From an uncultured virus (IMG/VR IMGVR_UViG_3300020190_000031) (taxonomy: Duplodnaviria; Heunggongvirae; Uroviricota; Caudoviricetes), in IMG/VR virus record IMGVR_UViG_3300020190_000031: a stretch of DNA of 64,000 nt. One strand, given 5' to 3'. Positions within the stretch are counted from its first letter, which is position 1. Each line of letters opens with the position of its first letter. The translations under genes were made by a program, and so were the position numbers. Below the pieces are notes generated by a model. The model was not told where the DNA came from and searched no databases. It saw only the letters and a program-made list of their open reading frames with translations. Below are positions 1,923 to 60,772 of this stretch, piece by piece.

Positions 1923-2045
1923 ATTAACAATTGAAAGTAACAATATAATTATACCATATAGGGGGAATAATATAGGAAAACTAATCAATGACTTAAGTAG
2001 AAGCAGTTATAAATGGAATACTAGGGGTGATTATTCAGGAAGACC

Positions 2046-2450
2046 GTGGCTGTATTAAATACTGCTTTAGGTTGGGTGAATGGTGATGTTGAGAGGATAT
2101 TGATAGCTGTTGGGGTATGGATTGGACCGTATACTTTGCATGAAGCGACAGTATGTTGCAATCAGCTAGGTTTAACTAGTCCTACAATGGTGAATAGAGT
2201 AAGGACATTAGTAACGCAGTATGAGGCAGCATGTACAGCTCAAAGGGAAGCGAATGTTGGGGCTAATGCTGGGAGGGTTTTACGGAAGGCGGATGTGTTG
2301 GAGTGGGATACAGAGAATGGTGGGACAGCACATGAGGGGGCAACAAGGGAGAGAGCAAGGTGTCAGGAGGAATTAGTTCAAATATTTGGAGCGTGTCCAA
2401 TTTTATCTGTTAAAGGAACAGATGCTGTTACTGCTCTTTATAGATCATGA
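2046..2450 (+). CDS. Putative virion protein (possible head-tail adaptor)
   Basis: 134 aa with a KADVLEW motif I recall from cyanosiphovirus proteins; preceded by late motif GGAATACTA (2015-2023). Confidence 0.5.
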   Translation: MAVLNTALGWVNGDVERILIAVGVWIGPYTLHEATVCCNQLGLTSPTMVNRVRTLVTQYEAACTAQREANVGANAGRVLRKADVLEWDTENGGTAHEGATRERARCQEELVQIFGACPILSVKGTDAVTALYRS

Positions 2451-2620
2451 AAACGCATCCTGAAATGCCCGAATCGATTAATGAAATCATTGGCTTTGTA
2501 AATAGAGAAGAGATGATTGATGTATGGTGTACAAATTGTAAGGCATTTCGTAAGGCAAATGCAAAGTATGCAAAATATTTAAACGGAGAGATTAGTAGCT
2601 GTAGACATTGTAGGGATTGA
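2447..2620 (+). CDS. Small Zn-finger-like protein (57 aa, not in ORF track)
   Basis: MKTHPEM...WCTNC...SCRHCRD; two CxxC; ATGA overlap with the upstream gene. Confidence 0.6.
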   Translation: MKTHPEMPESINEIIGFVNREEMIDVWCTNCKAFRKANAKYAKYLNGEISSCRHCRD

Positions 2621-2907
2621 ATAATACAGGATATTGGGATGTATTATTTTTAATAGTGATTGGTGTCACTATTGTAGGTTTATTAGTACAATGGCATTTT
2701 ATTGAGGAGTGTTATTTAGGGTATTCAAGAAATCCCAAAGTAAAACATCCTGAATTAAATCATGTTAATGCAGGAGACTCTTTGATGTCTGTGCAATTAA
2801 GAGATGAAGATATAAATGAATTACAAAAGAAGGTATTACAATTAAAGATGAGAGAATTATTTGAGGAACCGAGTCGATATGAGGATGAGGACGAAGAAGA
2901 ATGGTGA
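2617..2907 (+). CDS. DUF2973-like membrane protein
   Basis: N-terminal TM helix, KHPEL motif, acidic tail. Confidence 0.5.
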   Translation: MNNTGYWDVLFLIVIGVTIVGLLVQWHFIEECYLGYSRNPKVKHPELNHVNAGDSLMSVQLRDEDINELQKKVLQLKMRELFEEPSRYEDEDEEEW

Positions 2908-2936
2908 GAGAATAACGCAACAAAAAAGGATTGGCA

Positions 2937-3367: not shown

Positions 3368-3379
3368 CTTCCCACAACC

Positions 3380-3751: not shown

Positions 3752-3755
3752 GGTT

Positions 3756-5578: not shown

Positions 5579-5582
5579 ATTA

Positions 5583-5677
5583 CGTTCATTCGCTATTTGC
5601 GAATAGCGAACGGAAGTAAGCCGACGCGGAACGGGTCGTTCATCGGGTAACCGACGCAAACGCCGACTGAAGGAACG
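5583..5677 (+). ncRNA. Tandem glutamine riboswitch (glnA/Downstream-peptide class)
   Basis: Two units each opening CGTTCA and closing GGAACG; unit 1 has a hairpin plus CGGAAGTAAG, unit 2 has a hairpin plus CCGACTGAAGGAACG; lies upstream of a YRG peptide. Confidence 0.8.
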
Positions 5678-5706
5678 CTCTTTAACCTCGTTAGGGAGAT
5701 CCTGTC

Positions 5707-5862
5707 ATGTCAATTGCAACGTATCGCGGTGTCAAATATGACACTGATATTCCTAAACAGGAATATGCACGATGGTGGAATAAGATCCATCACGACGCTT
5801 CCAAGCATCTTGTGTACCGTGGGCTAGGCTATCGTCCAGTTCAGACATCACAACAGTCGTAA
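5707..5862 (+). CDS. DUF4278-family YRG peptide (51 aa, not in ORF track)
   Basis: MSIATYRGVKYD...LVYRGLGY; GGGAG RBS; TAATG coupling to the next ORF. Confidence 0.8.
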   Translation: MSIATYRGVKYDTDIPKQEYARWWNKIHHDASKHLVYRGLGYRPVQTSQQS

Positions 5863-6623: not shown

Positions 6624-6672
6624 AGGCTTATTCTACCACCATCGGCAATCTAGCCTAGGGTTTTTATTAGGC

Positions 6673-7730: not shown

Positions 7731-7761
7731 GGTTGGCATACTATTGGGCTGCAGTTTCCAT

Positions 7762-8328
7762 ATGAAATCTCTTCCCTTTGTTGTCAAGCCCAAGAAAGTT
7801 TTTTCTAAAGTACAATTGGGCAATGAATCCATCGGGATTTTTGAGATTGAGAAGCGAGGTTATTTAACAGTAAGCGAAAAAAGTTTTGTTGACTCTGTGA
7901 TGCAAGGCAGCGATGCCGTGACATTAATCGTTGCACTTGCTACTCGCATTGGATCAAAAACTAATCATACTATTGAGGATACTTACAAAGCAATCATTGC
8001 TGCGATTCAAGGTGGCGATATTGATGCTTATGCAGAAAGAATCAAGGAGGATTATCAAGCAGAGCTAGCGGACATTGTCGGACAGATGGGTGACTCTGTG
8101 CAACGCAGAGCTCTTGCGGCGGCTACAGTCATGATCAAATCAAGAGTTGATCCCGAATGGACGGTTGAAGATACGTTAGAGCAGCATCCTGACATGATCA
8201 ATATTATTTCCGAGTTTTACGGTGAAGAAGAGCTTGGTGATGTGGTAAGCAAGGAAGATGAGGCACCCACTGAAGAGACTATTGAAGAAACTGTGGGAAA
8301 GTCCGAAGAGGCGAATGGGGCCGCCTAA
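7762..8328 (+). CDS. Tail assembly chaperone (gpG-like)
   Basis: Ends shortly after slippery G GGA AAG (8295-8301); ATG 7762 follows late motif 7735-7743. Confidence 0.75.
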   Translation: MKSLPFVVKPKKVFSKVQLGNESIGIFEIEKRGYLTVSEKSFVDSVMQGSDAVTLIVALATRIGSKTNHTIEDTYKAIIAAIQGGDIDAYAERIKEDYQAELADIVGQMGDSVQRRALAAATVMIKSRVDPEWTVEDTLEQHPDMINIISEFYGEEELGDVVSKEDEAPTEETIEETVGKSEEANGAA

Positions 8329-9312: not shown

Positions 9313-9424
9313 CTACCAGTCAAGAGTGCTGTAGACGACGAAACGACCAATCGTCATAAGCATTCCCCTGGCTAATATATGGTTCCACCTATGGCACCCT
9401 AGAAAGCAGGAATTTCGGCATCAA

Positions 9425-10327: not shown

Positions 10328-10427
10328 AAGTAAAAATTAAGTAGGTTTCCATTTTGGCAACCTACAAAAGAGGGGTGGATCCCCCCGATTTCGTTGTTTC
10401 GGCCGGATTCATTCCGGATTTTTATCC

Positions 10428-11108: not shown

Positions 11109-11142
11109 GTTGGCAGACTAATCTAGCCTGTGCTGCCGGAAT

Positions 11143-18829: not shown

Positions 18830-19696
18830 ATGACAGTCATTTCACCAGATCTTTATAACGTATATAAAAAAATTGATGCACCGCTTAGTGGTGAAATTTT
18901 GTTGACAACTTCATTGCTGAGATTGCCTGAGAAATGCGAAACAATAATTTTTCATACAGCCCCTGCGGCAGGCGAACTATTACTTGATGGCCTGCCAATT
19001 GTTATCAAAGAGACTGAAATAACTAAAGCTGATATAATTTCAGGGCTATTAATTTGGGACACAACGACACCGGACACATCTGTACTTTTAGAAATAGATT
19101 ATTATGCATTTGATATTGATGGGGTTGTAATTTCTTTATTGCAGGTTTATTATCCAACTGATCTTGTTGCTGATGTCACTATAAATGTTATTGATGGAGG
19201 TAATCTGAATACCGGTGTTTCGAATGGTGGTGTTTCGCCAGATGCTGGTGATTTTGACACTGGTGTAACGGTAGCGAATGGTTATTCGTATAATGGTGGT
19301 GATTTTGACACAGGTGAGAGAGTTGGGATTGCTCCACCTCCTCCTAGTATCACAACATTCTACGAAGATGGAGAATTAGATACCGAAACGCAAAGTATTG
19401 TCTCACTACTTGACGAGAACCTTGAATTAATACCAACAATAAATCTTCCTAATGTTCAGTATTTCGCCAAAACAGTTGTAGATGTTGATTTCGAGTTTAC
19501 TTTAGATTTTACCCTTGAATTTCAAGTTAAATATGTTAGCAAGTATTTTGAAGGATTTGATTATGGATATCTAGCGCCTGACTTTGGTTATGATATTGAT
19601 TATGGCACAATTGGTGATGAAAACCAAGAAGGATATGATTTCAATAGTATAGAAAATTATATAGAGCCTACGCCGGCTTCAGGTGTTAGCCAATAG
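18830..19696 (+). CDS. Tail protein with DGG/DYG repeats
   Basis: IDGGNLNTG, DAGDFDTG, NGGDFDTG, FDYG, IDYG; ATG 18830. Confidence 0.6.
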   Translation: MTVISPDLYNVYKKIDAPLSGEILLTTSLLRLPEKCETIIFHTAPAAGELLLDGLPIVIKETEITKADIISGLLIWDTTTPDTSVLLEIDYYAFDIDGVVISLLQVYYPTDLVADVTINVIDGGNLNTGVSNGGVSPDAGDFDTGVTVANGYSYNGGDFDTGERVGIAPPPPSITTFYEDGELDTETQSIVSLLDENLELIPTINLPNVQYFAKTVVDVDFEFTLDFTLEFQVKYVSKYFEGFDYGYLAPDFGYDIDYGTIGDENQEGYDFNSIENYIEPTPASGVSQ

Positions 19697-19723
19697 GCAC
19701 ACTAGGTCAGGATTTCGGTCAAA

Positions 19724-23348: not shown

Positions 23349-23381
23349 TAGCGGTATCCTAATGGGAGATTGGCTTTATGA

Positions 23382-26300
23382 ATGGCACTACAGTTTCGGA
23401 AGGTATTAGAGGTTGATCGTCTTACCTTCACGCCTGTAGCTGGAGAACCTGTATACACTTTTGATGAAAAAAAATTATATATTGGTGATGGGACAACGGT
23501 TGGTGGTGTAAATATTGTATCAAATATAACAGTTCAGGATTTCCTTGATGCAGAATTGGATGAAGAAGATCTAGTAGATGGATCTTTTATCTATTATGAT
23601 GACGAGCAAAATAAATGGAGGATCGGTCTTCCTTCAATTTTGACATCTGATTTGGATGATGTAACAGAAGCTCAGAATATTGAAACCGACTTCATGATTG
23701 TTTATGATGCCACAACAAATAAATGGATTGTTCAGGATCAATTACCAAAGGCATTATCTGATGTAATAGGCATTGATATTGACGAAAACTTAACAGCAAC
23801 CAGTGTATTGGAATACAACAATACTACTGAAAATTTTGAATCCAAACCCTTACCCAATAAGCCGAATATCGGTGACTTGCTTGGTGTGCAAATTAACGGC
23901 ACTGCCAAAAGGGGTCAACTTTTATTTCAGGACGAAATTACTGGTGAATTTAGCAATCAGTACATAGACAATCATACTGGCACTGATTATTATGCTAATC
24001 TGTTTAATTATGCAGACAAAGATATTATAAAATATAATTCAACATCTGGCTTTTTTGAAAAAAGCACGCCATTTTTAAAGGATATAGAGCTTGTTAGTCT
24101 GAGTGGTTTAAATGAAGCTGAACCACCTGAAATAATTATACCTGTGAAGGTTGTTGGTGATAAATTTGTTTTCAATGATGTTCAGGTAGCCCCTCAGCTA
24201 CAGGTCTCTAATAAGAGGATTACTGTTTTTAATTTATCAGATCCCAGCCTTCTGGGAAAAACATTTAATTTTTCAGAAGTACCTGATGGCACTCACAGTT
24301 TAGATCCCGTTGGTTCTATTCTACAAAGGACATCAATTACTATTACCGGAACGCCTGGCATTGATGGCACCGCTAGACTTGATTTCAGAACGTCGGGCGT
24401 TATATTACCCCCTACAGAATTTTACTATTTCTGTCCCGAAGAGCCTGAGTTTGGTAATAAAATTAGCAGATATGATCCCCCAGCACCATTGCCATTTGTT
24501 GTTCAATGGCAATCAAGCCCTGAGACATTTAATACACATAGATTTAATTATTCGCTTGATAATTTAGGTGATGTTTTAGTGACAGCAGATGAAGATGGCA
24601 CATTGGCTAACTTCCAAATGCTTAGCTGGGATGCCGGTCTGCAAAAATGGACCACACCATTAGATCGTGTTGCCGGCATTGGGATTGGCGGCGAATTACC
24701 AAGAACCAGAACTCAGTATTCAAACGCTATGTGGGCTGGTGGAGTTACGGGTCTAGGGACTTTTGATTTCACTCTTGAAGAGGGAACAGAACTTAAAAGC
24801 ATAAAGATTAACCTTGATGAATTAGAAATAGAAGGACAGGAAGAGGGGTTTGACGCATATTTCTTCGAAACCAAGGAAGAGCGCGAAGAATTCATGGAGG
24901 CCGTTGAAGAAGCTGAACGGGCCCTTGGTCCTGGAGGTGTTATATCCAGGGCAGTTGTTGATGCGCTTGCTAAGGAAAAAAATGGCAAGGTTGCTCGCAT
25001 GCTAAGTAATAAAAAAGAATACACGAGGGTCGGTAAATCTGCCATACCGAAGGCTGTTTTAGAGGCGTCGGGTTCTGGCCCACCGGCCGGCGGTGGCGGT
25101 GGTGGTGGCCTGGGCGATTTTGGTGGTCTTATGGGTGCACTTGGCGACCTGGGCGGCCTCGGCGATGGCGGCGGCGGCGGTGGGTTGCCGGAAGGGGCCT
25201 TAGAGCCTGGACTGGATGAATTAACATCACCAATTCCAAATCCAGAAGAACAGGCAGAGGAATTCAAAAAACATTACAAGGAATTTGGCAACAATGTAAA
25301 GAAAATTTTTGGTGCCATGATGGCAAAAAGGCGTCTTTTAAAGGAGTTAATGCCTGAAACATTGGGAGGGTCAGGAGGTGGGCTTAACATTGAAATTGAA
25401 ACCTTTGATCCAACCGGGGCTTCTAGCCAAGATAAACCGCCAATTATGTTTGGCTGGAGAGCCAGTACAGATATCTATGGCTACTATTATTTCACCTACA
25501 CACAAAGGGCTTCTGCCTTAACATATAATAGTCGCAATCATCATTTGATTGTTCAATCTTATATGAGACGTTGTGCCTGTACGGTGCTTAGGCAAAACAC
25601 ATTTAAGGTTGTTTATTACTATGATGCAGATGATTCAAGATTTATGGCTGGTCAATGGCTTAGAATAGTAGAATGGCAGAATCCTGTTTCTCTTTACACA
25701 GGTTTACTGGAAGAATTGCCCTCTACTACAATCAGGGAGAATCTTGATGAATGGGATCCGGGCACAATTTACAGGAAGGAATCCAGGGTTATTCATAATG
25801 ATAAAGTTTGGGAGTGTTTGGTTGAGACTTCGGAAGCATCACCGCCTGCAGCGGGAACTGTTTTAGCTCCTGAAATCGTAAATGGTGAATTCGTAAGTAT
25901 GTTTGTTGAGATACCAGCGTTCAGTGTGAAATCACAACTATTTGAGGGTGTTTACCAGCAAAGATGCACACTTGGCAAGGATAGCTTTGGCGGGAAAACA
26001 CATCCTGTTTTTAGATTCGGAGAGCCTGGCGACGAGGCTGATTATATTTATGTTGGGGCAAATTTGGTCAAGTACAACGAACCAAGCCAAATCAGAGATA
26101 CTCCTAATCCTGTAAATATCACGATTCAGAGTAAGGTCAATCATCGGACAAATCTTTCAGCGGGTAATTATGATATCGGCGTAATTCTTTACGATATCAA
26201 CGTTCACTCTGCTTTGCAACATTTAATGGTGGGTGAATTTCAAACTTTTAACATTGAGAAAAGATTAGGAGAATGTAATTTAGGGGCAACTCAGTATCAG

Positions 26301-29300
26301 TTCCAAGCGGAGTCGGCTTTTGCTTTATCAAAAGGCAACAGTTCTGGTGCAACACAGGCCTCTACTGTTCCTGGCGCGGCTCCCGCAGGTATCGTTTGTT
26401 ATCGAGGTATATTTAGGCCTTATGGTAATCAAGGGTATTTTATAGATGGATTGAATGTAAATGCTGTAAATGGTGCAGCTTCATTTAATCTTGATGGCAA
26501 TTTACATGTTGATTCATCTCCACAACCGCCTGGCTATACATTCTTAGAAAATTTGCCAAGGCCAACACTTGATGCCCAAGGTACGGGAGCTGCATTTATT
26601 TCTAATTTCTTTACCTGGCGTAAGACTGATTATAGTGATTTTGTATTCTATTTACCCAAGAGCCTTGGTGGTGGTAAGGATGCACTCTTAGGCGACCGAA
26701 TCAAATACAGAAATGTGCCCAATACTAGTTCACTGGTAGTACCCAGTGTGGGGTCTCCATTTGCCAGCCCAATCAATCAAGTATTGGGTGAGAATGGTCC
26801 ATTTAATATGAATTTACAACCTTTAAATGGAAGTCAACATGTGTTTGGGGCGCGTTATTGCGTCAAACGCCGTGGTGCATCTTTAACTCCCGCTACACAA
26901 AAGACAGGTGAAAAAGAATTAGGTACTATTACAGATGCCAATGGAAATGTCATTGCTAGTAATGTTGAACAATCTGCGGCCCAGCCGGGACAGACATGGA
27001 CATATGACAAAACAGTTGATATAGTGCAAGTTGTTCCTGGTAATACTAGGGAATCTGGTGAGGCTGGTACAGCAACAACAAGTCTTTCGAGGATAGTTGG
27101 AAGTAAGTCTGCTGTCTGCATTGGTTTATGCGATGAAAGTAATTTATTGAGTGGCGGTCATTATCCTTACGATACCTGGAATAATTTCAGGGATCAATTC
27201 CCTGCTAGACCACATTTCATATTAGTGCCAAGTGAGCAACAAAAAATACACACAGATCCATTCCCGAATTCAACATTGGATTATGGATCTCTTGCTGGTG
27301 TACAAAATCCCACAAATAGTTCTAACCTGAATGGTGTAATTGTTGCCACAATTCCTCCGCAAGGTAATGGCACAGGTACTGTCGCGGTTAGGTACATCAA
27401 CACTACCAGCTATAAAGAAACAGGAGCAATTGATATTCCGGACAACAAGGAGATACACATTATAAGGTATCCAAAGGGTCATCATGGTGGCCTCTGGTCA
27501 CTGTGGTCTTATGAGTGGAGGTACGAAGATAATGGTAGTTTTGTGACTGGAGCTATTCGCGAAATGAACAATGTTGGCGGTCAAGTTGCTCCAGTCGATA
27601 TTGCTTACGAATCTGCTGATAATAGTTGGGCCTCTGTGGCTTGGTCTCCTGTGCTATCAAGATATGTAGCTGCCGGCAATCTTAACTATTTAAACGACTT
27701 TATGTACAGCCCAAACGGAAAGGGATGGACGGGTATTACAACTTCTGTTCCTATAGATTTCGGTACTGCTAACGTAAATAACGGCAGGAACACAAGTATT
27801 CTTTGGGCCTCACACCTAAATAAATTTGTAGTATTTGGTGGTGTTGAAGGGCCTGGCGCTTATAACTTTATTGCTACAAGCTCCTACGGGACAGAGTGGA
27901 GTCAGGTATCTCTCAGTGCGGGTCCCCAGGGCGCACCGGGTGGCAGTGGGCCGTGGACAAAACCTATCACATGTGCTGCTTATTCGCCTCAATTGCAACT
28001 GATTGTTGCCCTGGCCCCCAATACCGGGAGTCCTTACTCAGCACTTCTAAGTACAAATGGTGCAACATGGACTCATGCGGTGATACCTGACAGCTCAACT
28101 TTAAATTGGAATGCAATTTGCTGGTCGCCTGAAAAGAATTTATTTGTTGCAGTCCATGATACAGCCAACAACTTAAATACTCCAGTGATGACAAGTCCTG
28201 ATGGTGTTAATTGGACTAAAAGGACTGTTCAGGGTACGAATAATTGCCAGTTCAAATCAATTGTTTGGGCAAAGGAGATCGGACTTTTTGTCGCGATAGG
28301 TACCTATGGCAACGGTGGCGTCGATGTCATTACAAGTCCTGATGGTATTGATTGGACAGCAAGGTCTACGAATACATATGTACAGTGGAAATCAATTGCT
28401 TACTCACCAAAACTAGCATTACTTGTTGCTGTCAGCTCTCAATCAAATGTAAATAGTATTGCAACAAGCAAGGATGGAATTGCATGGACAATAGTAAATG
28501 GTGTAGCAACTGAAGGTAAATGGCAATCAGTAATCTGGAATCCAGACAGAGAAGAATTTTTGGCTGTTGGTGCAGGCGGCACAGGCGATAGAGTGCTGAC
28601 AAGCCGTGATGGTCGAACATGGAGAACACAAACAAGCGTTTCTTATCCACCTTCAGGAGCATTCGGTACTAATATTGAATGGCGGCATATACCCAACCCT
28701 AATAATCTTACTCAATATACACTTATTACGCCCGGGGCTGCACCATATATAGAAACATATAATCCGATTAGTGTCAATCAAAAAAGCTCCTTGCCTCTTA
28801 CCTATTCATGGAACGCTGTTGCATCGAGTGGTTTAACTGGTTATGTACCATCGTGGAGCACCGAAGCGACCCCCTTCTTCAAAGGTAATTTAGTATGGAT
28901 TGCCGATCCTGCATTTGACAACCTTGGTGAACCTAAAAGGATGCTTAGCTTGGAATCAGAAGAGATTACTATTTCATATAATATAAGAATACCTGCCGGA
29001 ATTGAAACTTTAACTCAAAACCTAAAACTTAGAGCAGCCAGTGATAATGAGGTGACTATTCAAATTTTAAATCCAATAACAAATGTAACTAATACAATTA
29101 TGACCGCAATTGGTTTTACAACTGATACTATTTTAAATATTCCAGCCAATATGTTTGAGACTTATTTCAGCCCACAGCAAGTTCATGATCAAAATAAATG
29201 GTTGACACTTATTGTTAAATCAAGAAATGTACCAAGGCTAGGCCAACCTCCAACTCAAAAATGGATAGAGAATCCATCGGCTTTTGCATTATCGATAAGT

Positions 29301-29702: not shown

Positions 29703-29734
29703 GAAGGGAATACTATCTTGACTTAGGATTCGCC

Positions 29735-31744
29735 GTGGCATTACAGTTCCGCAGGGGTACAGAAGGGCAACGTGATGAGTCAACCTTTGTACCTTTGGTT
29801 GGCGAACCTATTTATACAACTGATACTAAGCGTCTTTATGTAGGCGACGGCAATACGGTTGGTGGCAATCCCATTGGCTATAATAACAAATTAAGCGATT
29901 TAAGTGATATTGAACTTCAATCAGAAGCTCAAATACCTATTTTAAACATAGCTGCTGCTGAAAATATAGTAACAATAACCACTACAGTACCTCATGGTCT
30001 TGGAACTGGTGATACTGTTTACATTTCTACTGCTTCCAAGCCGGCCGTCAATGGATTAAAAACTATTAATGCAATTGCTGCAACAGTAATAACATTCAAT
30101 CAAACTATAACTAGCTTCCCTGTGACGCTTGATAGCGGGGCGATAAAATACGAGCCAATTGATAATGCAATCCTTGCTTATGATCAGGCAACAGGCAAAT
30201 GGGGTGAACAATCTTTTGTATATAGATTTCGCGATCTAGGCGATGTAAAAATTACCAATCCTCAGGAAAACGATATAGTACAATGGACTCCAATCCCGAT
30301 TGGCACTATTAAAAATTCAAACAACCAAACAGTAGAAACTAATGTTGAACAACCCGCAACTCTACCAACTGGATTTACCTGGACACAAACTGGTACTATA
30401 TCAAAATTTAAAAATAAACAATTTGAGATAGGTATTGATAATCTCACGGATGTACTTATTAATGAATCGAGTTTAGCCAATAGACAAATTTTAGCGTATG
30501 ATAGTTTTCTTGAAGCATGGAAAAACCAAGATTATGTTGATGAGGTAACAGACCTAGCAGATGTTGAGTTAACACCTTATCCTGATCTCACAATACAACA
30601 AGCAAGAGTTACATTATCTGGATCTTATGCTCAAAATGATATTGTAAAAATACAGATTACGGGAACAGAATATCAACATAAGGTTACATTAGCAAATGTC
30701 AATTATATTGATAGTATTTCAAATACGAATGCTGAATTCGATGCGGCAATGCTTGCTTTTCTTGCTACTACAATGGCAGGAAAAATCAATGCCAATGCAA
30801 ATTCTCCAGTTAACGCAACTGCCAGCGGCCCTCTAATAACTTTAAATCCTAAAGGGGCTCCAATCAACTTAAATCTTACCGTCAATGCTGTTAATGCTAA
30901 TACTGGTGATGGATTGACGCCAGGTATTACTAAATTTGAACCAGTCACTAAGCATGTTTTAACATATGATGGACAGAACTGGACTAATAAAGGTCTTGAA
31001 ATAAACAATTTTAGCTTATCAGGGTTGAATGATGTAGATCTCGATAATGTTACAAACAATCAGATTATTCAATACAATGAATCTAGCGGAACTTGGCGAA
31101 ATGTTGATAACTTTATCTCAATAACACAGTTTGCTGATGTTGAGATCGGTGAGCCTGCTGCCGGTGATGCTTTAATATACAGTCCCACCAATCAAAAGTT
31201 TGAAGTAAGAGCCTTTAAATTAGACGATTTAAGCGACGTAAATGATCCTAGTTCCACGGTAATAATTCCGGATGGGTCTGTACTTGCCTATAGTGATTCT
31301 GCCCAGGCTTGGACGCCCCAGACATTTAATAGTTTATCCTCTAGAACTGAGATAACATTTCAAACGGGTCCGATTGAGAACCTTGAGATCACTACGGAAG
31401 ATTTTGAAGCTTTTACTGGTTATGCTATTTTTAAGGTTAAAGCAAGCGCTCCCTGTACAATAACTTTATATGTTAGCGACTATGAAAGAGAGGCTGATCT
31501 AGATAGGGCGGAAAATGTCAATCCTGGAATTGGTCAGGGTATTTTTGCTGAGTTGTCACCGCCGGATACTAGTTACAGGAGAATTGCGCCAGTTATTTAT
31601 GGATTTAATGATGATGTACCTATCACAAGAACCGCTTACGCCAAAATAAGAAATAGAAGCGGTTACTATCAATCCAGTATTTCTATTACTTTTGTTCTTC
31701 TACAAATCGAGGCAGATCCTGAACAGGCCGGTGAGGGCGGATAG
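29735..31744 (+). CDS. Tail fibre protein
   Basis: MALQFRRG...GEPIYTTDTKRLYVGDG; repeated L.DL.DV......IL.Y......W. Confidence 0.75.
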   Translation: MALQFRRGTEGQRDESTFVPLVGEPIYTTDTKRLYVGDGNTVGGNPIGYNNKLSDLSDIELQSEAQIPILNIAAAENIVTITTTVPHGLGTGDTVYISTASKPAVNGLKTINAIAATVITFNQTITSFPVTLDSGAIKYEPIDNAILAYDQATGKWGEQSFVYRFRDLGDVKITNPQENDIVQWTPIPIGTIKNSNNQTVETNVEQPATLPTGFTWTQTGTISKFKNKQFEIGIDNLTDVLINESSLANRQILAYDSFLEAWKNQDYVDEVTDLADVELTPYPDLTIQQARVTLSGSYAQNDIVKIQITGTEYQHKVTLANVNYIDSISNTNAEFDAAMLAFLATTMAGKINANANSPVNATASGPLITLNPKGAPINLNLTVNAVNANTGDGLTPGITKFEPVTKHVLTYDGQNWTNKGLEINNFSLSGLNDVDLDNVTNNQIIQYNESSGTWRNVDNFISITQFADVEIGEPAAGDALIYSPTNQKFEVRAFKLDDLSDVNDPSSTVIIPDGSVLAYSDSAQAWTPQTFNSLSSRTEITFQTGPIENLEITTEDFEAFTGYAIFKVKASAPCTITLYVSDYEREADLDRAENVNPGIGQGIFAELSPPDTSYRRIAPVIYGFNDDVPITRTAYAKIRNRSGYYQSSISITFVLLQIEADPEQAGEGG

Positions 31745-31789
31745 GTATCCTACTAAGCATTATCCAAGAGCAGTGATTGCTCTTTTTAT

Positions 31790-32547: not shown

Positions 32548-32702
32548 ATTGGGAAGAATAGTTATTTTTGGAACTATATGATAGAAAGCACCCGGTTTTG
32601 GCTGGCCGTGATGGTTGGGCAGGCAGGGTGTTCCGATGTTGGGGCGTGACGCCCTAAGCAGCGTTTCACCTTTCCTTGTTCACATCAAAAGGAGTTTTTA
32701 AA

Positions 32703-33669: not shown

Positions 33670-33748
33670 GTTTTAGGAAACATAGCTTAGAACCACCAGC
33701 GCTGGTATACGTTTTGCGCGTTGGTTTTCCTCTCTTTCTTTTTTTATC

Positions 33749-34099: not shown

Positions 34100-34126
34100 T
34101 TGGTTTTACCAAAAGGCTGGAATAAT

Positions 34127-34152
34127 AAGGGTGGCTTAGGTCACCCTTTTTT
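34127..34152 (+). terminator. Rho-independent terminator
   Basis: AAGGGTGGC-TTAG-GTCACCCTTTTTT. Confidence 0.8.
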
Positions 34153-35155: not shown

Positions 35156-35188
35156 AGGGCGGAATACTAGTTCAGCTCTGAAACGGAA

Positions 35189-36730: not shown

Positions 36731-36766
36731 TGTAGGAATGATATAATGACTCCTTAAATTAAGAAA

Positions 36767-37921: not shown

Positions 37922-37986
37922 TGGGAAACCTATTGAGCCATTAAATAATGGCCGTGTAATGCTTTATAGCTATTGAGGAGCGCCAC

Positions 37987-40964: not shown

Positions 40965-41150
40965 CTGGCTCTGGCGCAGCATTGTCGCCACCCCGATGAC
41001 GATCATGCTGGCTGCCGATAGCACCGTTTGTGGCGGATGAGGTGGATAAGGAATCCTAGATTTGTAGGGTTTCAACAGTCCAGTGGTTGAAAAGCGGGTA
41101 CAAAGTGCGCCTTTGGCACAGACCTTAGCCATATTTAACAAAAAAGGCCA

Positions 41151-41393: not shown

Positions 41394-41437
41394 TACTATA
41401 AATTTAATGGCACACTAGTGCAGCTTCATTCAGATCA

Positions 41438-41969: not shown

Positions 41970-41992
41970 TGGTACACTAGTTGGCGTTGTTA

Positions 41993-46629: not shown

Positions 46630-46760
46630 GGGGGTTACATAATTTCAGGTTATCTTAAGTTACCTTTGGGGTATCCTAAGGATACCTTTTGGGTGACTTT
46701 ATGTAACCTATGGGGGTATCCTGAGTTCACCCTACCTATAAGATATATATATACAAGATA
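46630..46760. repeat. Nested inverted repeats plus AT tract; candidate origin or operator
   Basis: GGTTACATAA (46633-42) / TTATGTAACC (46699-708); GGTATCC-TAA-GGATACC (46670-86); (TA)n at about 46743-53. Confidence 0.6.
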
Positions 46761-47777: not shown

Positions 47778-47904
47778 CATTGATTGCGCCGCAGCGAGTT
47801 TGGCAATTTTCTTCAGTGGCGTTGTGGCCAAAACTGAAGAAAACTTTAAAGAACTTGACGGCGACCCTTCCGCTTACTAATCTTTAGCCGCTGAAAAAAA
47901 ATCA

Positions 47905-48693
47905 ATGGCATTTGACACGGACACAATCAAATTTTGGATGGATGCTGCTGGTCGTTATCCACTACTTCATCCCCAACAAGTATTAATCCTTGCCAAGCAA
48001 ATTCAGCAAAATCCACCTGAAAGTAAAATTAGACAACGAGCCATCCAAAAATTAATCCGCCATAATCTTAAATTAATTCCTAAAATTGCCAGAAAAGCTA
48101 TGAAGGCAAAATACGGCAAAAATTTTGGCTCAACATATACTGAAGATGTTCTCCAATGCGGGGTACTCGGTTTAAGTCGTGCTGCAGAATTATATGATCC
48201 AACACGGGGCTACGCTTTTAGCACTTATGCAATTCCTTGGATTTTTCAGGCGATCACTAGGGACATGTGTAATAATATTTCAGCAATCCGAGTGCCTGAA
48301 AACACAATAAGAGAACACTATAATGCATTTAGAAATATTCAAAGTCCAAAAGAATTGCTTGAAATAAAAGAAAAAAAATTGCATCGATATTGGGATGCTT
48401 TTCGGGCTATAAATTGCAAATCTTCAGATTCAATGATGTCACAAAAGACTGGAGAGGATATCGACGTTGAAGGCACGTACATGGTTTCAGATATTACCAA
48501 TGAAGTTGTCGATGATGTCGATGACTTGCTTTCACTTTCTAAAACATCTGATTTGTCTGTTGAGTTGGTTAAGGCTCACTTTATTGAAAATACTACGATC
48601 AAAGAGCTTGGAAGAATACACAACATGTCAAGGAACCAAGTTGCAAAAATAATTAAGGATTGCTTATTGAGCATTAGGGACAACATAGATTAG
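47905..48693 (+). CDS. Sigma-70 factor, RpoD/group 2-like
   Basis: GRYPLL (region 1.2), NLKLI, GLSRAAELYDPTRGYAFSTYA.PWI.QAITR, C-terminal HTH. Confidence 0.9.
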   Translation: MAFDTDTIKFWMDAAGRYPLLHPQQVLILAKQIQQNPPESKIRQRAIQKLIRHNLKLIPKIARKAMKAKYGKNFGSTYTEDVLQCGVLGLSRAAELYDPTRGYAFSTYAIPWIFQAITRDMCNNISAIRVPENTIREHYNAFRNIQSPKELLEIKEKKLHRYWDAFRAINCKSSDSMMSQKTGEDIDVEGTYMVSDITNEVVDDVDDLLSLSKTSDLSVELVKAHFIENTTIKELGRIHNMSRNQVAKIIKDCLLSIRDNID

Positions 48694-52171: not shown

Positions 52172-52360
52172 ATGTTAAAACCCAAAACCTATCCAATACT
52201 ACAACAAGCCATCGAAGAAGGAGTTCTAAGGGGATACAAGAAAGCCCATAAACATGTTGAAAAACCTGATGAAATATTTCTTGTTGAAACAATTATTAAT
52301 TATACAATGGAATCTATATTTGAGTGGTTTGACTTTGACAACTCAGATACGGCATCCTAA
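52172..52360 (+). CDS. Hypothetical protein
   Basis: 62 aa, AIEEG..RG..KAHKH...EWFDF. Confidence 0.65.
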   Translation: MLKPKTYPILQQAIEEGVLRGYKKAHKHVEKPDEIFLVETIINYTMESIFEWFDFDNSDTAS

Positions 52361-53139: not shown

Positions 53140-54652
53140 ATTAGGTAGGGACTATTTACGCCGATCAGCAAGATCTCAGGGGATGTTAAAAGCCCTGAGA
53201 GAAAAGAAACTTAAATTAAAGGAAAAAGGCGAAAAAATTCTGTTCCATAAGTTTATAAAACAAGTATATCCAAATTATAAATTTTATAAATTTCACGCTG
53301 TTCTTATTAAAGAGTTGCAGCGTGTACTAGATGGTGAATGCGACCGGCTGATTTTACAAGTTCCCCCAAGAACAGGCAAGTCGCTGCTTAGTTCTCAATT
53401 ATTGCCAGCGGCTTATTTATTAGCTCACCCAGAGCGTTTTGTAGGTATTTCATCTTACTCTGCAGAGCTCAGCCAAGGATTTTCGAGGAAGGCGAGGGAC
53501 TTTTTCAAGGAGGCTGGCGGACAACTTGATCCGACCTCTCAGGCTGTTAATGCCTGGGGCACGCAAGGGGGTGGGGGATTATGGGCGACAGGTGTGGGAG
53601 GCGCCATAACAGGCCGCTCCGGCCACCTACTAATCATTGACGACCCTGTCAAAAACCGTGAAGAGGCCGAAAGTGGCAGATTGATGGAAAAACTTTGGGA
53701 CTGGTATGCTTCTACTCTTTATACACGTCTGGAACCAGAAGTTGGAGCAATTGTGGTCATTCAGACTAGATGGTCTGAGAACGATATGATTGGTCAACTT
53801 ATTGAAAACGAACAAAATGTTAGTGAAAAGGGTAGAGAGAATTGGACAATTGTAGACTTGCCTGCGTTATATGAAGATGAAGGTAGCAGGCCGCCTCTAC
53901 CTGAGCATTGTAAAGTCGTACCTGACTGGAGGGAAGAGGAAGGCCAGGCGCTTTGTCCACAGAGATACAATGAAGAAGATTATGAAAGAATCAGAGAGGC
54001 AATTGGTGCGAGGGAATTCGCTTCGCTGTATCAACAAAGACCGGCCCCAGTTGGTGGTAATATGTTTAATCCTGACTGGTGGCAGTTTTATGAGCATGAT
54101 ACCGTGATGCCTGATTTTAACAGGATCATGCTCTCTGTTGACTGTACATTTACTGATGCAAATACGAGCGACTTTGTCGTTGGCGCAGTCGTAGGCCAAG
54201 CTGGAAACTCATTTTATGTTTTAGATTTGTATAGGGAGAAAACTGATGTAATTGGAACTATGGCGATGATTTCAAGAATGTATAAACGACATGTTCTTGA
54301 TGGTACTATTATTGAGCTTGCTGCTAGTGGATATGCAGTTTATCAAATGGCCAAGAAAAAAGTACCAGGCTTAATTGGATTCAAGCCAGAAAAAAGCAAG
54401 GAGGCCCGAGCCACAGGCATTGTACCCGTTGTAGAAGCCGGAAATGTCTACTTACCTGTTAGCGCTCCATGGTTAGATGCGTTTATATCGGAATTTAGTC
54501 TATTCCCGGCGGCAAAAAATGATGACCAGGTTGACGCAGTGACAATGGCCATAAATTATTGTTTACAACGAACTGCACCACAATTAACACAGGTTGCCTG
54601 GGGTAGAGGTACAAGATATTTGGGTGATTCTCTCGCAAGTGAATTATGGTGA
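53129..54652 (+). CDS. terL: Terminase large subunit
   Basis: PPRTGKS, ITGRSGHLLIIDDPVK, IQTRW, YQQRP, DDQVDA. Confidence 0.95.
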   Translation: MANKLGRDYLRRSARSQGMLKALREKKLKLKEKGEKILFHKFIKQVYPNYKFYKFHAVLIKELQRVLDGECDRLILQVPPRTGKSLLSSQLLPAAYLLAHPERFVGISSYSAELSQGFSRKARDFFKEAGGQLDPTSQAVNAWGTQGGGGLWATGVGGAITGRSGHLLIIDDPVKNREEAESGRLMEKLWDWYASTLYTRLEPEVGAIVVIQTRWSENDMIGQLIENEQNVSEKGRENWTIVDLPALYEDEGSRPPLPEHCKVVPDWREEEGQALCPQRYNEEDYERIREAIGAREFASLYQQRPAPVGGNMFNPDWWQFYEHDTVMPDFNRIMLSVDCTFTDANTSDFVVGAVVGQAGNSFYVLDLYREKTDVIGTMAMISRMYKRHVLDGTIIELAASGYAVYQMAKKKVPGLIGFKPEKSKEARATGIVPVVEAGNVYLPVSAPWLDAFISEFSLFPAAKNDDQVDAVTMAINYCLQRTAPQLTQVAWGRGTRYLGDSLASELW

Positions 54653-54678
54653 TAGAATGATAGATATCCAATAGTGTT

Positions 54679-55311
54679 ATGGCAAGAAAAGCAAGAAAGT
54701 TTCATTTAAGCAAAGAACAGCAAAAGCTTGCATCTGACAATATAAACCTAGCCAGAAGGGAAGCCTGGCGTTTACAACGCACTACAGATATAGACTATGA
54801 CACATTAGAGGGTGCAGCATTGGAAGGTTTATGCAAAGCAGCTTCAAGATATGATCCTTCTTCGGGATACAAGTTCAGTAGTCTTGCTGTGCCTACAATA
54901 AGGGGTGAATTGTTACATTGGGTTAGAGATAAAACATATTCGATGAGATTAACTCATAGGATGAGAGAAACTTGGATCAAAGGAAGAAAACTTTTATACA
55001 AAGGTTTTTTGGACGACGAGATTGCCGAATCGTTGGGCATTCTCCCTGAGGAATGGCAAGAAATAAAGGGTGTTTGTTCGGGACCACCCTTGGAATTAAA
55101 TGATCAGGCCAAGCCGACTGAAAGCTTAGAGCCTGATGAGATTGACTTCGCCGATAGGTTTCAAGTTGCTACTTTAATGGGATGGTCTCAAATGTTAGAA
55201 CAAGATCAATTAGCAATATTAAACTTTCTGCAAAACAACACTAATCGTATACCTCATTCACAAATTAAAGAGTTCACTCGTTTGGCTAATCTGTTTTATG
55301 AAGATACTTGA
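54679..55311 (+). CDS. Sigma-70 factor, group 3 (SigF-like), region 4 apparently degenerate
   Basis: GLCKAASRYDPSSGYKFSSLAVPTIRGELLHWVRD; no clear C-terminal HTH. Confidence 0.85.
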   Translation: MARKARKFHLSKEQQKLASDNINLARREAWRLQRTTDIDYDTLEGAALEGLCKAASRYDPSSGYKFSSLAVPTIRGELLHWVRDKTYSMRLTHRMRETWIKGRKLLYKGFLDDEIAESLGILPEEWQEIKGVCSGPPLELNDQAKPTESLEPDEIDFADRFQVATLMGWSQMLEQDQLAILNFLQNNTNRIPHSQIKEFTRLANLFYEDT

Positions 55312-57632: not shown

Positions 57633-57781
57633 TTGAAGATAGCCTTGATTCCTTAAATAATAATGATAAAAGCGAGGAGCTGTTAGACGAAAGCCCGAAA
57701 TCCCTGTTGCCAACAGGCTTTTGGAACAAAATATGCCAGCAGGAGCCTGGCTATCAAGGTTGCAAACTTTATGATTTATAG
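57629..57781 (+). CDS. CP12-like protein (C-terminal Cys pair only; not in ORF track)
   Basis: Acidic 50 aa ending C-QQEPGYQG-C-KLYDL, matching the CP12 C-x8-C-xxYD terminus; ATGA overlap. Confidence 0.6.
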   Translation: MIEDSLDSLNNNDKSEELLDESPKSLLPTGFWNKICQQEPGYQGCKLYDL

Positions 57782-57831
57782 GTCCTGTTGATCAGTATCC
57801 CGGTAAACTGTTTTTACCGATTATCACAGGG

Positions 57832-60180
57832 ATGACCGAGTTTCTAAAATCCGCGCCTAGTGCAGAGGCAGTTTTTTATCGCACATATAGTCGTCGCAAG
57901 GCAGATGGCACCAGGGAGAACTTTTGCGAGGCAATGACCCGTTGTGTTAAGGCTATTGCTCAAACAGGCAAGTTTACCGTAGAAGAAGAAAACCTTGTAC
58001 TTCAACAGGCCTTGAAACAGGCTTGCTTCCCGTCCGGCAGAGCTTTCTGGGTTGCGGGTACCGAATGGGCCGAGGACAGTACAAATTACAGTGGTTGGTA
58101 TAACTGCACCAGCACAAGAGTAAAAGATTTAGAAGCTTTTGAGCTCATTATGGAGCTTGCCATGATGGGATCTGGCACGGGAGCAATGTTGGAGAAAGAT
58201 ACAATCATATCCTTGCCAAGGATTGAAAATACAATTGACATTGTGTTTATTACTGACGTTGGCGGTGTTGCGCCTAATCAGCGGGAGCAGGAAAGCTTTT
58301 TGGTTGAGCCGCGAGAAAGCAACGAACCTGAGTATGTTCTTGTGGTTGGGGATAGCAGAAAGGGCTGGGTCAAAGCTTATCGTCAAATCCTTGAGCTCGC
58401 ATGCGATCCAGAGGGTGAAGACATTCCTTTAATTATTGACTTAGGTAATGTTCGTCCATCCGGCGAAAAACTAAAAGGTTTTGGCGGCACTTCAAACCCA
58501 ATTAAGCTTAAGGAAGTTTTTGAAAAAATTGTCTCCTTGCTCAACAATGCAGTTGGCAGAAAGTTAACAGCAATCGAATGCTGTTTAATAATTGATGAGG
58601 CTGCAGCCTGTGTGGTTGCGGGCAACATCCGCCGCAGCGCCGGCATGCGCCAATTCTCTTGGGATGACACAGAGGCAATTAACTCAAAGGCTAATTTATA
58701 TACGCAGGATGAAAATGGGAATTGGCGTGTGGATCACAAAAAGGAAGCCCTTCGAATGGCAAATCATACTACTTGCTATCATTTCAAGCCAACACTTGAA
58801 GAAGTTGAGGAGTCTGTTCGACAGCAATTTTATAGTGGTGAGGGCGCCATACAATATGTTCCACAGGCCCTAATTCGCGCAAATATTGACATATTAGATT
58901 CCCCCGATGTTCAACAAAGATTTTTAAAAGAATATGCCAAGGGCAAGGAGTTTGCCGAGCATTTTCTTGTTCATTATGCATATGAAAAAGGAATTACCAT
59001 TAACAAGCGGGAGGCCGAGCACCGAATCAATCGCTATGGCTTGAATCCATGCGGTGAAATCATTGGCACAGACTTCCATTGCAATCTTGCTGAAATCCAC
59101 TTGAACACTATTGACCCAAATGATCGACAGGCTCAAATTGATGCATTTAAAGCGGGAGCTCTACAAGTCGCTGCTTTATTACATCACCAATTTAAGGATG
59201 AAAGATATCAATATAGTCGTAAGATTGATCCAATTGTTGGAGTTAGTTTTACTGGTCTTTTTGATTTCTTTGTTATTGCTTTTGGCGCTGAATGGCTTGG
59301 CTGGATGATGAAGGGTCGGCCTAATAATAATTTAGGCAGAAAGTTTAGCAATTCTGAAATCAAATACTTGTCACTATGGCGAAGTGTTGTCAGGGAGACA
59401 ATCAATAAGTACTGCATGCAACATGGGTTGCGTGTGCCTAATCGTATGACGACCGTACAACCTGCTGGGACAAAAAGTTTACTTACGGGCGCCTCTTCTG
59501 GATGGCATCCTCCCAAGGCTCAGCGATTTATTCGCAGAATTACATTTGGCAAGACCGACCCCTTGGTGTCTGCTTTGCGGGACTGGGGTTATGCGGTAGT
59601 ACCAGCACAATCCGCTAGAGACGAGCATGGGAAGTTGCTTGATGACATCATGGATGATCGAGTCCATGAAGTCTTGGTTGAGATCCCCACTGAAGTATCC
59701 TGGGCTAACTTATCTGGTTGTGATGAATTTGATTTAAGCAAATTGCCTGTTGAATCTCAATGGTGGCTATATATGCAAGTGCAACAATTTTATACTGAAC
59801 ATAATACTAGCGCTACGATTGAATATCGACTTGAAGAATTGACTGTACTCTCTGATTTGATTTACCAGTCGATTAAAAATGATACGGGTTATATATCGGC
59901 AGCCTTATTGGCACGGTTTGATGCTAATGAGACCTTCCCTCGTTTGCCATTTGAGCCAATCGATAAGGTTACTTATGATAGACTGAATGGCGTTTCCGAA
60001 TCTTACCGATCAGCACTTCCACTTATCTTCAAGAAAGATAGGGTTGACTTCCTTGAAGTTTTAAATCAGTACGATAAGGCTGATTATGAATTGAAAGGCA
60101 GCGCTGGCTGTGACAGCGATAAATGCCTTTACGAGGCGTCAAAAGATAGCGATCAGGCTGGATTTCAGGTTCAATTATGA
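57832..60180 (+). CDS. nrdJ: Class II (cobalamin-dependent) monomeric ribonucleotide reductase
   Basis: FYRTYSR, PSGR, YNC, VAGNIRRSA, NPCGEI, CNLAE, TVQPAGT, C-terminal CDSDKC. Confidence 0.93.
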   Translation: MTEFLKSAPSAEAVFYRTYSRRKADGTRENFCEAMTRCVKAIAQTGKFTVEEENLVLQQALKQACFPSGRAFWVAGTEWAEDSTNYSGWYNCTSTRVKDLEAFELIMELAMMGSGTGAMLEKDTIISLPRIENTIDIVFITDVGGVAPNQREQESFLVEPRESNEPEYVLVVGDSRKGWVKAYRQILELACDPEGEDIPLIIDLGNVRPSGEKLKGFGGTSNPIKLKEVFEKIVSLLNNAVGRKLTAIECCLIIDEAAACVVAGNIRRSAGMRQFSWDDTEAINSKANLYTQDENGNWRVDHKKEALRMANHTTCYHFKPTLEEVEESVRQQFYSGEGAIQYVPQALIRANIDILDSPDVQQRFLKEYAKGKEFAEHFLVHYAYEKGITINKREAEHRINRYGLNPCGEIIGTDFHCNLAEIHLNTIDPNDRQAQIDAFKAGALQVAALLHHQFKDERYQYSRKIDPIVGVSFTGLFDFFVIAFGAEWLGWMMKGRPNNNLGRKFSNSEIKYLSLWRSVVRETINKYCMQHGLRVPNRMTTVQPAGTKSLLTGASSGWHPPKAQRFIRRITFGKTDPLVSALRDWGYAVVPAQSARDEHGKLLDDIMDDRVHEVLVEIPTEVSWANLSGCDEFDLSKLPVESQWWLYMQVQQFYTEHNTSATIEYRLEELTVLSDLIYQSIKNDTGYISAALLARFDANETFPRLPFEPIDKVTYDRLNGVSESYRSALPLIFKKDRVDFLEVLNQYDKADYELKGSAGCDSDKCLYEASKDSDQAGFQVQL

Positions 60181-60698
60181 GCACTCTTGTCGACCACGAA
60201 ATTAGAGAACTTTGCCGTAAATCTGGCTTGGTAGAGCCGTTTGATGTCGATCTTTGTAATCCCGCCAGTATAGACATTAGGCTTGGGGACACAATTCTTG
60301 TAGAGGGTCGTATTTGCGGCCCCGAACAAGAACGTTCCCGCTGGATAAAACATAAAATTTCTGATACTGGTTACAATTTGGCACCTGGACAGTTTATCTT
60401 GGCACATTCATTTGAGGTAATTAGAATTCCGAATTGGTTGGAGGCCACTTTTCATTTAAAAAGCAGTCGTGGGCGAGAGGGTCTAAATCATCTTCTTGCA
60501 GGATACGTCGATCCAGGTTTTAATGGCCGAATTACCTTAGAACTTCAAAATGTAAATAGTCGACATAACGTCGAACTTACCGCTGGCATGCGAATTGGCC
60601 AGTTAAGGTTTAGTAAGCTTGAACATACCCCATTGCAATCATATGCCGTTACTGGACGATATATGAATGATATGACAGTCGTTGCAAGCAGGGGCTGA
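60177..60698 (+). CDS. dcd: dCTP deaminase
   Basis: NPASIDIRLG, KSSRGREG, AGYVDPGFNGRITLEL. Confidence 0.92.
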   Translation: MSTLVDHEIRELCRKSGLVEPFDVDLCNPASIDIRLGDTILVEGRICGPEQERSRWIKHKISDTGYNLAPGQFILAHSFEVIRIPNWLEATFHLKSSRGREGLNHLLAGYVDPGFNGRITLELQNVNSRHNVELTAGMRIGQLRFSKLEHTPLQSYAVTGRYMNDMTVVASRG

Positions 60699-60772
60699 AG
60701 GTAGACTAATAGGAGTCGCGTGATGCGACAAAATATATTTTGCCGTGAAGGCTTTACCTCGCTGAGATAGCA

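Follow-up and report, generated by a model that had tools for sequence, protein, structure and literature searches.

Many virion, packaging and lysis genes of an uncultured virus of the Caudoviricetes (IMG/VR record IMGVR_UViG_3300020190_000031) are headed by the nine-base word GGnAnnCTA, and the same DNA codes for two sigma factors. What is this word for, and which polymerase reads it? The stretch analysed comprises 64,000 nucleotides and is called the window below. An earlier annotation, the sequence-only reading, had matched the word in the form GGHANNCTA to a phage SigF-like sigma factor as a late promoter. The word, named the box here, is probably a one-box late promoter, read by the core RNA polymerase of the host together with the phage sigma factor of 210 aa encoded at 54679-55311. 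Features lie on the plus strand unless stated otherwise.

The window represents a cyanosiphovirus. PHROG and Pfam scans of 57 open reading frames (ORFs) yielded a siphovirus gene set with tail tube, 1576-aa tape measure, fibres, scaffold, major capsid, portal, small and large terminase (TerS/TerL) and endolysin, besides a replication and recombination block, a class II ribonucleotide reductase (RNR) and ThyX. The gene order is syntenic with the annotated maps of S-CBS2, S-CRES3 and P-SS2. Relatives of the 210-aa sigma were identified by tblastn in S-CBS2 (62.9% identity), S-CRES1-3 (58-59%) and P-SS2 (52.5%). The second sigma gene, 47905-48693, encodes an RpoD-like protein of 262 aa with a weak region 4 match, which is an unlikely reader of the box. 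Profile-profile comparison of the two phage sigmas aligned only region 2.

Distribution of the box in the window and its relatives

The window contains 28 matches to GGHANNCTA, 24 on the plus and four on the minus strand. In 100 dinucleotide shuffles, counted on both strands, the mean was 18.92 (standard deviation 3.77, maximum 27), and none reached 28. The 17 exact copies and four ATA-ending variants of the sequence-only reading were all found again at their coordinates. Seven plus-strand copies that it had not listed (1975, 10430, 15715, 34676, 46670, 56948 and 63861) are located inside ORFs of the set used. Intergenic DNA, defined as lying outside ORFs of at least 50 aa, amounts to 3965 nt or 6.2% of the window. 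It harbors 16 copies of GG.A..CTA on the plus strand and one on the minus strand, against an expected mean of 0.83 (1000 shuffles, maximum 5). Within coding sequence, seven sense and seven antisense copies compare with 10.9 and 5.7 expected after codon shuffling. Enrichment over shuffled and coding background had been named as a check, and it is present between genes, while coding counts stay about at or below expectation. Depletion inside genes was observed in P-SS2, with 5 sense copies vs 20.2 expected and 2 antisense copies vs 8.1 (codon shuffle); the window, S-CBS2 and S-CRES3 do not resemble it in this. As a trace of selection against stray promoters, strand depletion is mostly accounted for by codon usage, and it is significant only in P-SS2 among these four genomes.

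The box usually begins 0-5 nt past the upstream stop codon and ends 18-23 nt ahead of a start. Spacings are counted from the motif end to the first start of the ORF. The form GGAATACTA at 2015..2023 precedes an unknown gene (2046-2450) by 22 nt; a second exact copy at 1975-1983 lies 62 nt ahead of the same gene. GGCAATCTA (6644..6652) is found 20 nt upstream of gene 6673 (169 aa), which is followed by the neck/tail-completion gene 7182. GGCATACTA (7735..7743) directly abuts the first start of gene 7744/7762 (194 aa), and the ATG at 7762 is 18 nt off. GGCACCCTA (9393..9401) precedes gene 9425 (300 aa) by 23 nt, and GGCAACCTA (10356..10364) the tail tube gene 10428 by 63 nt. The tape measure gene has GGCAGACTA (11112..11120) 22 nt upstream, and a terminator-like hairpin with T-run ends 9 nt before this box. 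GGCACACTA at 19696..19704 overlaps the upstream stop codon and stands 19 nt before gene 19724. GGTATCCTA (23353..23361) lies 20 nt ahead of a 2106-aa structural/fibre gene, GGAATACTA (29707..29715) 19 nt ahead of a 669-aa Mtd_N fibre gene, and a further GGTATCCTA (31744..31752) 37 nt ahead of the scaffold gene. These two large fibre/structural genes, 23382-29702 and 29735-31744, are adjacent, carry a box each, and match Mtd_N (PF18454) at the N-terminus with E 1.2e-5 (just under the family cut-off) and E 9e-12, respectively.

Downstream of the capsid region, GGAATACTA (35161..35169) precedes gene 35189 (513 aa) by 19 nt, GGAAACCTA (37924..37932) the tail fibre gene 37987 by 54 nt, GGAATCCTA (41050..41058) gene 41151 by 92 nt, and GGCACACTA (41409..41417) the small gene 41438 by 20 nt. 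GGTACACTA (41971..41979) belongs to the endolysin gene; the first start follows after 1 nt and the ATG at 41999 after 19 nt. GGCATCCTA (52351..52359) is placed 14-18 nt before the small terminase gene, and GGTAGACTA (60700..60708) 64 nt before the portal gene. The three shortest spacings (0, 1 and 14 nt) become 18, 19 and 18 nt if the true start is the next ATG. The sequence-only reading had the box before almost every virion gene. This holds for about 17-20 blocks of virion, packaging and lysis genes, not for the single genes: 15870, 16272, 18809, 20152, 20427 and terL (53129) have no box, and their starts overlap or abut the preceding gene. The box thus heads gene blocks.

One further exact copy is part of a perfect palindrome, GGTATCCTAAGGATACC, at 46670-46686; a further GGTATCCTG lies 27 nt downstream. 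The site is the divergent control region between a minus-strand helicase operon and plus-strand early genes. Its role may be that of an operator or of a bidirectional terminator.

The same word emerged from an unbiased count, in which every 9-mer pattern with six fixed positions was compared between the 70 nt before each ORF and the whole sequence. GG.A..CTA was the top upstream gapped 9-mer in the window (14 of 32 copies, p 8e-10), in S-CBS2 (27 of 43, 1e-19) and in S-CRES3 (24 of 37, 1.6e-18). Plus and minus strands hold 38 and 5 copies in S-CBS2, 32 and 5 in S-CRES3, and 20 and 3 in P-SS2. Around the sigma gene, 80 IMG/VR loci (1.25 Mb) carry 338 copies on the plus and 47 on the minus strand. 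Sixty of these loci's copies fall into the 20-24 nt bin ahead of a start; the other 5-nt bins below 200 nt contain 1-15 each, and 110 copies lie at 200 nt or more. Taking the four genomes together, the density of exact copies 15-28 nt ahead of plus-strand ORF starts (52 in 4438 positions) is 57 times that elsewhere on this strand (64 in 310,703).

Orthologous genes are headed by boxes across genomes, namely those for tape measure (S-CBS2, S-CRES3 and P-SS2 as in the window), TerS, portal, endolysin and scaffold. The scaffold spacing of 37 nt in the window recurs as 39 nt in S-CBS2 and 36 nt in S-CRES3, and the portal spacing is 55-64 nt in the window and S-CRES3. The box has been kept while its surroundings diverged, since a 20-kb megablast gave a single match of only 90 nt, to S-CBS2.

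Geometry of the box and the probable start of transcripts

GGnAnnCTA would be the central element of these late promoters, an extended -10 of the sigma-70 family, and probably accounts for all of their sequence specificity. The geometry of the letters fits such an element: A4 would be -11 and T8 would be -7, the bases flipped out by sigma region 2, and region 3.0 would recognise the GG at -14/-13 in double-stranded form. The -11A and -7T that are flipped out in sigma-70-family -10 elements have the same four-base spacing. Copies with one mismatch at the right distance from a start were compared by position. Changes at A4 (ratio 0-1.9) and T8 (0-1.1) are not enriched, while changes at G1, G2, C7 and A9 reach 3.7-7.1. 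By these small counts, change is therefore least tolerated at A4 and T8, a pair with four-base spacing.

Sites 8-40 nt before a start were pooled from the window (11), S-CBS2 (19), S-CRES3 (21), P-SS2 (15) and IMG/VR loci (81), leaving 145 distinct sites after removal of duplicates. The base before GG is G in 7% of them; a third G is disfavoured, while C7 (-8) and A9 (-6) are fixed. The claim that no -35 is shared was borne out by information profiles and by a k-mer test. No upstream column in fixed register exceeds 0.42 bit (17 sites) or 0.20 bit (145 sites), and no 4- or 5-mer between -42 and -15 remains enriched over a segment 70 nt further upstream after Bonferroni correction. The -10 register places +1 on the sixth base after the box. 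This base is a purine in 78% and T in 6% of the pooled sites. Transcripts would begin at the purine about 6 nt past the box, giving leaders of about 13-18 nt.

An alternative is that the box is the binding site of a phage activator or other late regulator, with the true -10 elsewhere. Monomeric regulators can bind asymmetric 9-bp sites, and many window genes are of unknown function. A second conserved element that could serve as -10 is absent within 40 nt upstream and 30 nt downstream of the box, and the 18-23 nt to the start codon leave no room for a downstream core promoter. This is the least probable of the explanations considered, with hardly a chance of being right.

When the pattern is relaxed at position 7, 12 boxes have a terminator-like hairpin with T-run whose end lies 8-31 nt upstream: two in the window, two in S-CBS2, six in S-CRES3 and two in P-SS2. 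The two of the window are 11112 (tape measure) and 32570, the variant ahead of the capsid gene. Just past such hairpins a new transcript must begin.

These sites also bear on a function of the box in RNA, either as a processing site with fixed leader or as an aid to translation start where the Shine-Dalgarno sequence is weak. The distance to the start codon is tight (mostly 18-24 nt), the box often follows directly on the upstream stop codon, and the one-strand packing of genes means that read-through RNA would contain the word. Behind the 12 hairpins there would be little RNA to process. The intolerance at A4 and T8 and the GG lead match recognition of DNA by a sigma factor, and the antisense coding depletion in P-SS2 would not be explained by an RNA signal. 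The box distance is not set by the ribosome, since longer gene-specific distances (scaffold, portal, and about 97 nt at the capsid gene) are conserved between genomes. A role in RNA is highly unlikely.

Variants of the box occur in the capsid region. GGAACTATA at 32570..32578, with C7 changed to A, is located behind a terminator and 97 nt upstream of the major capsid gene. GG, A4 and T8 are found at the matching place in S-CBS2, S-CRES3 and P-SS2, in each phage behind a terminator and followed by a leader of about 100 nt with conserved blocks. This comparison supports the 32570 variant of the sequence-only reading. The leader blocks common to the four phages read GCACCC ... CCGWGAYGG ... GGGTGT ... 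TTCACC ... TTCA (window 32579-32675; L001 30835-30965; L004 6160-6285; L006 34200-34330). A structured RNA was not indicated by RNAalifold, which found 8 pairs and zero covariation energy in the four sequences.

Three ATA-ending variants lie further downstream. GGAAACATA starts at 33676. Directly after GGAATAATA (34119..34127) stands a hairpin rich in GC, and next come a T-run and the start codon. The same arrangement occurs with exact boxes in S-CBS2 (record positions 32942 and 33353) and S-CRES3 (60675 and 61093). A start 6 nt past such a box would exclude the 5' arm of the hairpin from the new RNA, so transcripts from upstream would stop there and the new transcript would escape. The third variant, GGAATGATA at 36735, is part of GGAATGATATAAT (36735..36747), 19 nt before a head-decoration-like gene. 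It overlaps a perfect extended -10, TGATATAAT (36739-36747), and may be a host-type promoter.

The short sigma factor as candidate reader

The box would be read by the host core enzyme with the 210-aa sigma of the SigB/F/G type (54679-55311), a protein that has region 2, region 3 and, at the C-terminus, a compact domain of three helices. Region 2 is matched by Pfam Sigma70_r2 with 29.0 bits (cut-off 24) at residues 20-85, and was found in 26 of 26 family members scanned. VIA aligned model residues 9-86 to structures of sigma domain 2 with Z 12-13 and a root-mean-square deviation (rmsd) of 1.2-1.9 Å. Region 3 and the 3.2 linker are present as well; the profile aligns through residues 17-214 of Pseudomonas aeruginosa FliA and ends where 4.1 borders on 4.2. 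Residues 93-133 are helical in the model, and VIA aligned its residues 9-137 with sigma 2-3 in several holoenzyme structures. The nearest solved relatives are Staphylococcus aureus SigB in an open complex (8x6g, top match), then FliA.

The assignment to group 3 made by the sequence-only reading agrees with the best NCBIfam matches, although the curated family cut-offs are not reached. Cyanobacterial SigF (PRK07408 / NF005644) scores 85.8 bits against a cut-off of 261, with sigma residues 14-186 on positions 29-205 of 258. SigBFG (TIGR02980) follows with 54.5 bits against 234. Among 833 candidate proteins, 719 belong to the sigma family at E <=1e-5, and the best 120 are 193-222 aa long. The family is near-invariant over its first 157 residues and variable beyond. 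In bacterial and archaeal genomes, 38 pattern matches to the sigma were obtained and none was confirmed. P-SS2 ORF003 and S-CBS2 gp077, annotated as group 3 sigmas (PMC2784084; GenBank), are orthologues of the window protein and occupy the same place after terL.

The sigma had been said to lack region 4. Pfam Sigma70_r4 was indeed not detected, at E up to 10, in any of 26 short or nine longer forms; the latter are six of 242-244 aa from IMG/VR loci, that of S-CRES3 (244 aa) and two of 218-223 aa. Region 4 is probably not simply absent. AlphaFold predicts C-terminal helices at 157-170, 174-184 and 193-209 (pLDDT 80.9 for the whole protein), and the C-terminal domain alone (60 aa) is predicted as three helices with pLDDT 91.1. 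Compared with 48,161 chains, eight of its best 50 rows are sigma factors aligned over their sigma-4 part, namely SigL, AlgU, WhiG, SigK, SigB, SigE and SigW. Their Z values are weak (4.0-5.5) and no proof. The 60 residues span 64-157 target positions (66-78 in seven of the eight rows). Foldseek and VIA with the whole model confirmed the sigma fold and did not place the C-terminal domain (rmsd about 21 Å). The models lead to the conclusion that region 4 is probably reduced and divergent rather than absent. Cut down to three poorly conserved helices, this domain would not read a -35.

A host sigma of group 3 (SigF/SigJ type) or the 262-aa RpoD-like phage sigma might read the box instead, the short sigma having another regulon. 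The closest described promoter is the J-Box, an extended -10 (GGGaAtacT) dependent on SigJ in Nostoc punctiforme, its hexamer centred about 10 bp ahead of a mapped start, as at gvpA (Gonzalez et al. 2019, PMC6495340). The A and T of the J-Box are near-invariant and four apart, the -35 is weak and AT-rich, and the authors note a likeness to the SigF -10 of Synechocystis. The phage box shares the GG lead, the hexamer with A and T four apart, a weak or dispensable -35 and, as proposed reader, a group 3 sigma of the SigF/SigJ type; the commonest window box, GGAATACTA, contains GGaAtacT. It differs in having two Gs instead of three, in its fixed C-8 and A-6, in heading virion, packaging and lysis genes, and in a sigma of 210 aa with a cut-down C-terminal domain. 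This cyanobacterial promoter is closer to the box than the Bacillus SigF/SigG promoters named in the sequence-only reading (PMC6495340).

For a host reader it counts that the box resembles a J-Box minus one G, that the hexamer retains A-11 and T-7, and that J-Boxes are reported from species having only SigF (PMC6495340). The link between short sigma and DNA is an inferred one. Yet a third G is disfavoured in the phage box, which suggests a separate specificity, and group 3 sigmas are described as rare in Prochlorococcus in the P-SS2 paper (PMC2784084). If a host motility sigma were the reader, the phage would need no near-invariant copy of its own. The RpoD-like phage sigma is disfavoured by genome comparison, in which sense copies within 80 nt of a start were counted out of all copies. 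Cyanosiphoviruses with only an RpoD-like sigma lack enrichment (KBS-S-2A 2/12, S-CBS3 0/0, S-CBS1 0/1, S-LBS1 1/2), as does S-CBS4 (1/12 in the first 50 kb of 69.4 kb; no short-sigma match by tblastn, RpoD-like sigma unchecked). The four genomes with the short sigma have 17/32, 26/43, 25/37 and 14/23 copies near starts (53-68%). This co-occurrence of genes and words favours the short sigma over the RpoD-like one. A host group 3 or RpoD-like reader is, all in all, unlikely.

The reading by the short sigma implies an order of expression. The host sigma or the phage RpoD-like sigma would first transcribe the short sigma gene, whose product would then serve about 20 units (virion, lysis, packaging, RNR). 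The sigma gene would be under its own host-type extended -10 word, TGATAGAAT at 54650..54658, which lies 20 nt before the start codon. Of 64 distinct relatives, 47 have TGnTAnnnT in the 70 nt ahead of the sigma start, with most copies ending 18-24 nt from it; in 27 of the 64, the sigma-upstream words also read GGnAnnCTn. This suggests host-type expression of the sigma gene, possibly with self-reinforcement in some relatives. As a general mark of replication genes, TGnTAnnnT was not upheld. The window has 12 against 11.0 expected (p 0.42) and P-SS2 1 against 1.1, neither enriched; S-CBS2 (15 vs 7.0) and S-CRES3 (13 vs 5.4) are modestly enriched. Individual good extended -10 matches exist in the window, that of the 210-aa sigma gene among them. 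Upstream of the RpoD-like sigma gene (47778-47904), TTGACG, a spacer of about 17 nt and TAATCT were read by eye. Such a sequence would agree with the host primary sigma transcribing this gene early.

Several points weigh against a strictly late, one-element regulon of the short sigma. All four positive genomes belong to a single clade, and the five controls come from other lineages; the co-occurrence is therefore one evolutionary contrast and not nine. The claim that the 54679 sigma reads the box is thus backed by co-occurrence in one clade and by family resemblance, the identity of the reader being what is inferred. The label late is taken from gene function only. The RNR gene, a nucleotide-metabolism gene, is box-headed: an exact box lies 22 nt upstream in S-CBS2 and S-CRES3, and the one-mismatch copy GGTAAACTG (57802..57810) 21 nt upstream in the window. 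The regulon therefore takes in at least one nucleotide-metabolism gene, and of the proposed late virion regulon the virion, packaging and lysis part stands while the purely late part does not. The major capsid gene has no exact box in any of the four genomes, only GGWAYnnT being kept. A-11 and T-7 of the hexamer nAnnCT recur in the -10 elements of the host, so a host sigma may recognise the box to some extent. Since the sigma gene follows directly on terL, downstream of the terS box, it is likely to be expressed to some degree under its own control or by read-through. Finally, the C-terminal domain is predicted to fold confidently and is weakly sigma-4-like, and upstream DNA contact is possible because the compact sigma-4-like domain of phiEco32 gp36 touches DNA near -37.

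Known systems and biological meaning

In phage T4, gp55 acts on the late promoters, TATAAATA, together with gp33 and the gp45 clamp. In both systems numerous late units are preceded by a lone -10-type box with no -35, and a phage sigma-like protein takes part; that of the cyanophage would, like the T4 protein, have no functional -35 reader. The boxes differ, the cyanophage word being GGnAnnCTA, and in the cyanophage sigma region 2 and region 3 are retained along with a remnant weakly like sigma-4. No analogue of gp33 or gp45 is named among the PHROG hits of the window. Promoters of SigB, SigF and SigG in Bacillus and Staphylococcus have a G-rich or CATAnTA-type -10 and a defined -35, and their sigmas carry a full region 4. 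The sigma subfamily and the GG-led -10 are shared with the phage system; the defined -35 is not, nor, probably, the full region 4.

gp36 of phiEco32 serves one-element middle and late promoters (AATGTA centred at -11.5), assisted by gp79, and its C-terminal domain touches -37 (PMC12276001). Common to both would be a divergent phage sigma, one element near -10 and a compact C-terminal domain resembling sigma-4, weakly so in the window protein. Sequence family and box are unrelated, and gp36 needs gp79, a co-factor with no known counterpart in the window. A phage sigma with a one-box late promoter is thus a known strategy (T4, phiEco32), here with an element of the J-Box type. In the P-SS2 paper only sigma-70 promoters were predicted, by BPROM (PMC2784084). 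A review of 2023 regards the sigmas of cyanophages as factors that modulate host metabolism (PMC10452541). No description of the box, or of these sigmas as assigned to their own late genes, was found in a literature search outside which the S-CRES papers, the S-CBS genome paper (Huang et al. 2012) and the P-SS2 promoter table S1 remained.

A connection with replication might be read from the longer sigmas. Their last five residues, in the S-CRES3 type of 242-244 aa as well as in the 223-aa proteins of L025/L027, read Q-x-x-[LV]-F, with Q and F invariant in 16 of 16 sequences (L042 10001-10732 and 15 other loci). The motif looks like the beta-clamp-binding pentapeptide of bacteria. It might be imagined that reading of a -35 was given up, that region 4 became a flap-binding stub, and that the long-form tail couples late transcription to replication via the host sliding clamp; such a coupling is quite unlikely. 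Just as doubtful is its extension, an independent re-invention of the gp55/gp33/gp45 logic of T4 with a true sigma-70-family protein. A predicted complex of the long-form tail (residues 196-244) with DPO3B_SYNE7 scored 0.30 (mark 0.32), in a run without controls. The tail is absent from the 210-aa sigma of the window; clamp coupling there would therefore need another partner or be absent.

Two further elements were recorded in the window. A glutamine riboswitch (Rfam RF01739, 41.8 bits, gathering score 35) is located at 5581-5681, just upstream of a 51-aa ORF (5707-5862). Three tandem tRNA genes occupy 63409-63636 (Rfam RF00005, 54-58 bits apiece).

The 719 sigma relatives show that metagenomes from seas, estuaries and lakes commonly contain cyanosiphoviruses of the S-CBS2/P-SS2 type. 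The published work takes their sigma genes for modulators of host metabolism or leaves the target open. A defined box provides a ready map of transcription units, and it could label genes of unknown function, e.g. 2046, as members of the virion and lysis programme. As a compact orthogonal pair, sigma and promoter could be tried in cyanobacterial engineering. The family would offer a natural example of region 4 reduction when a strong extended -10 carries the specificity.

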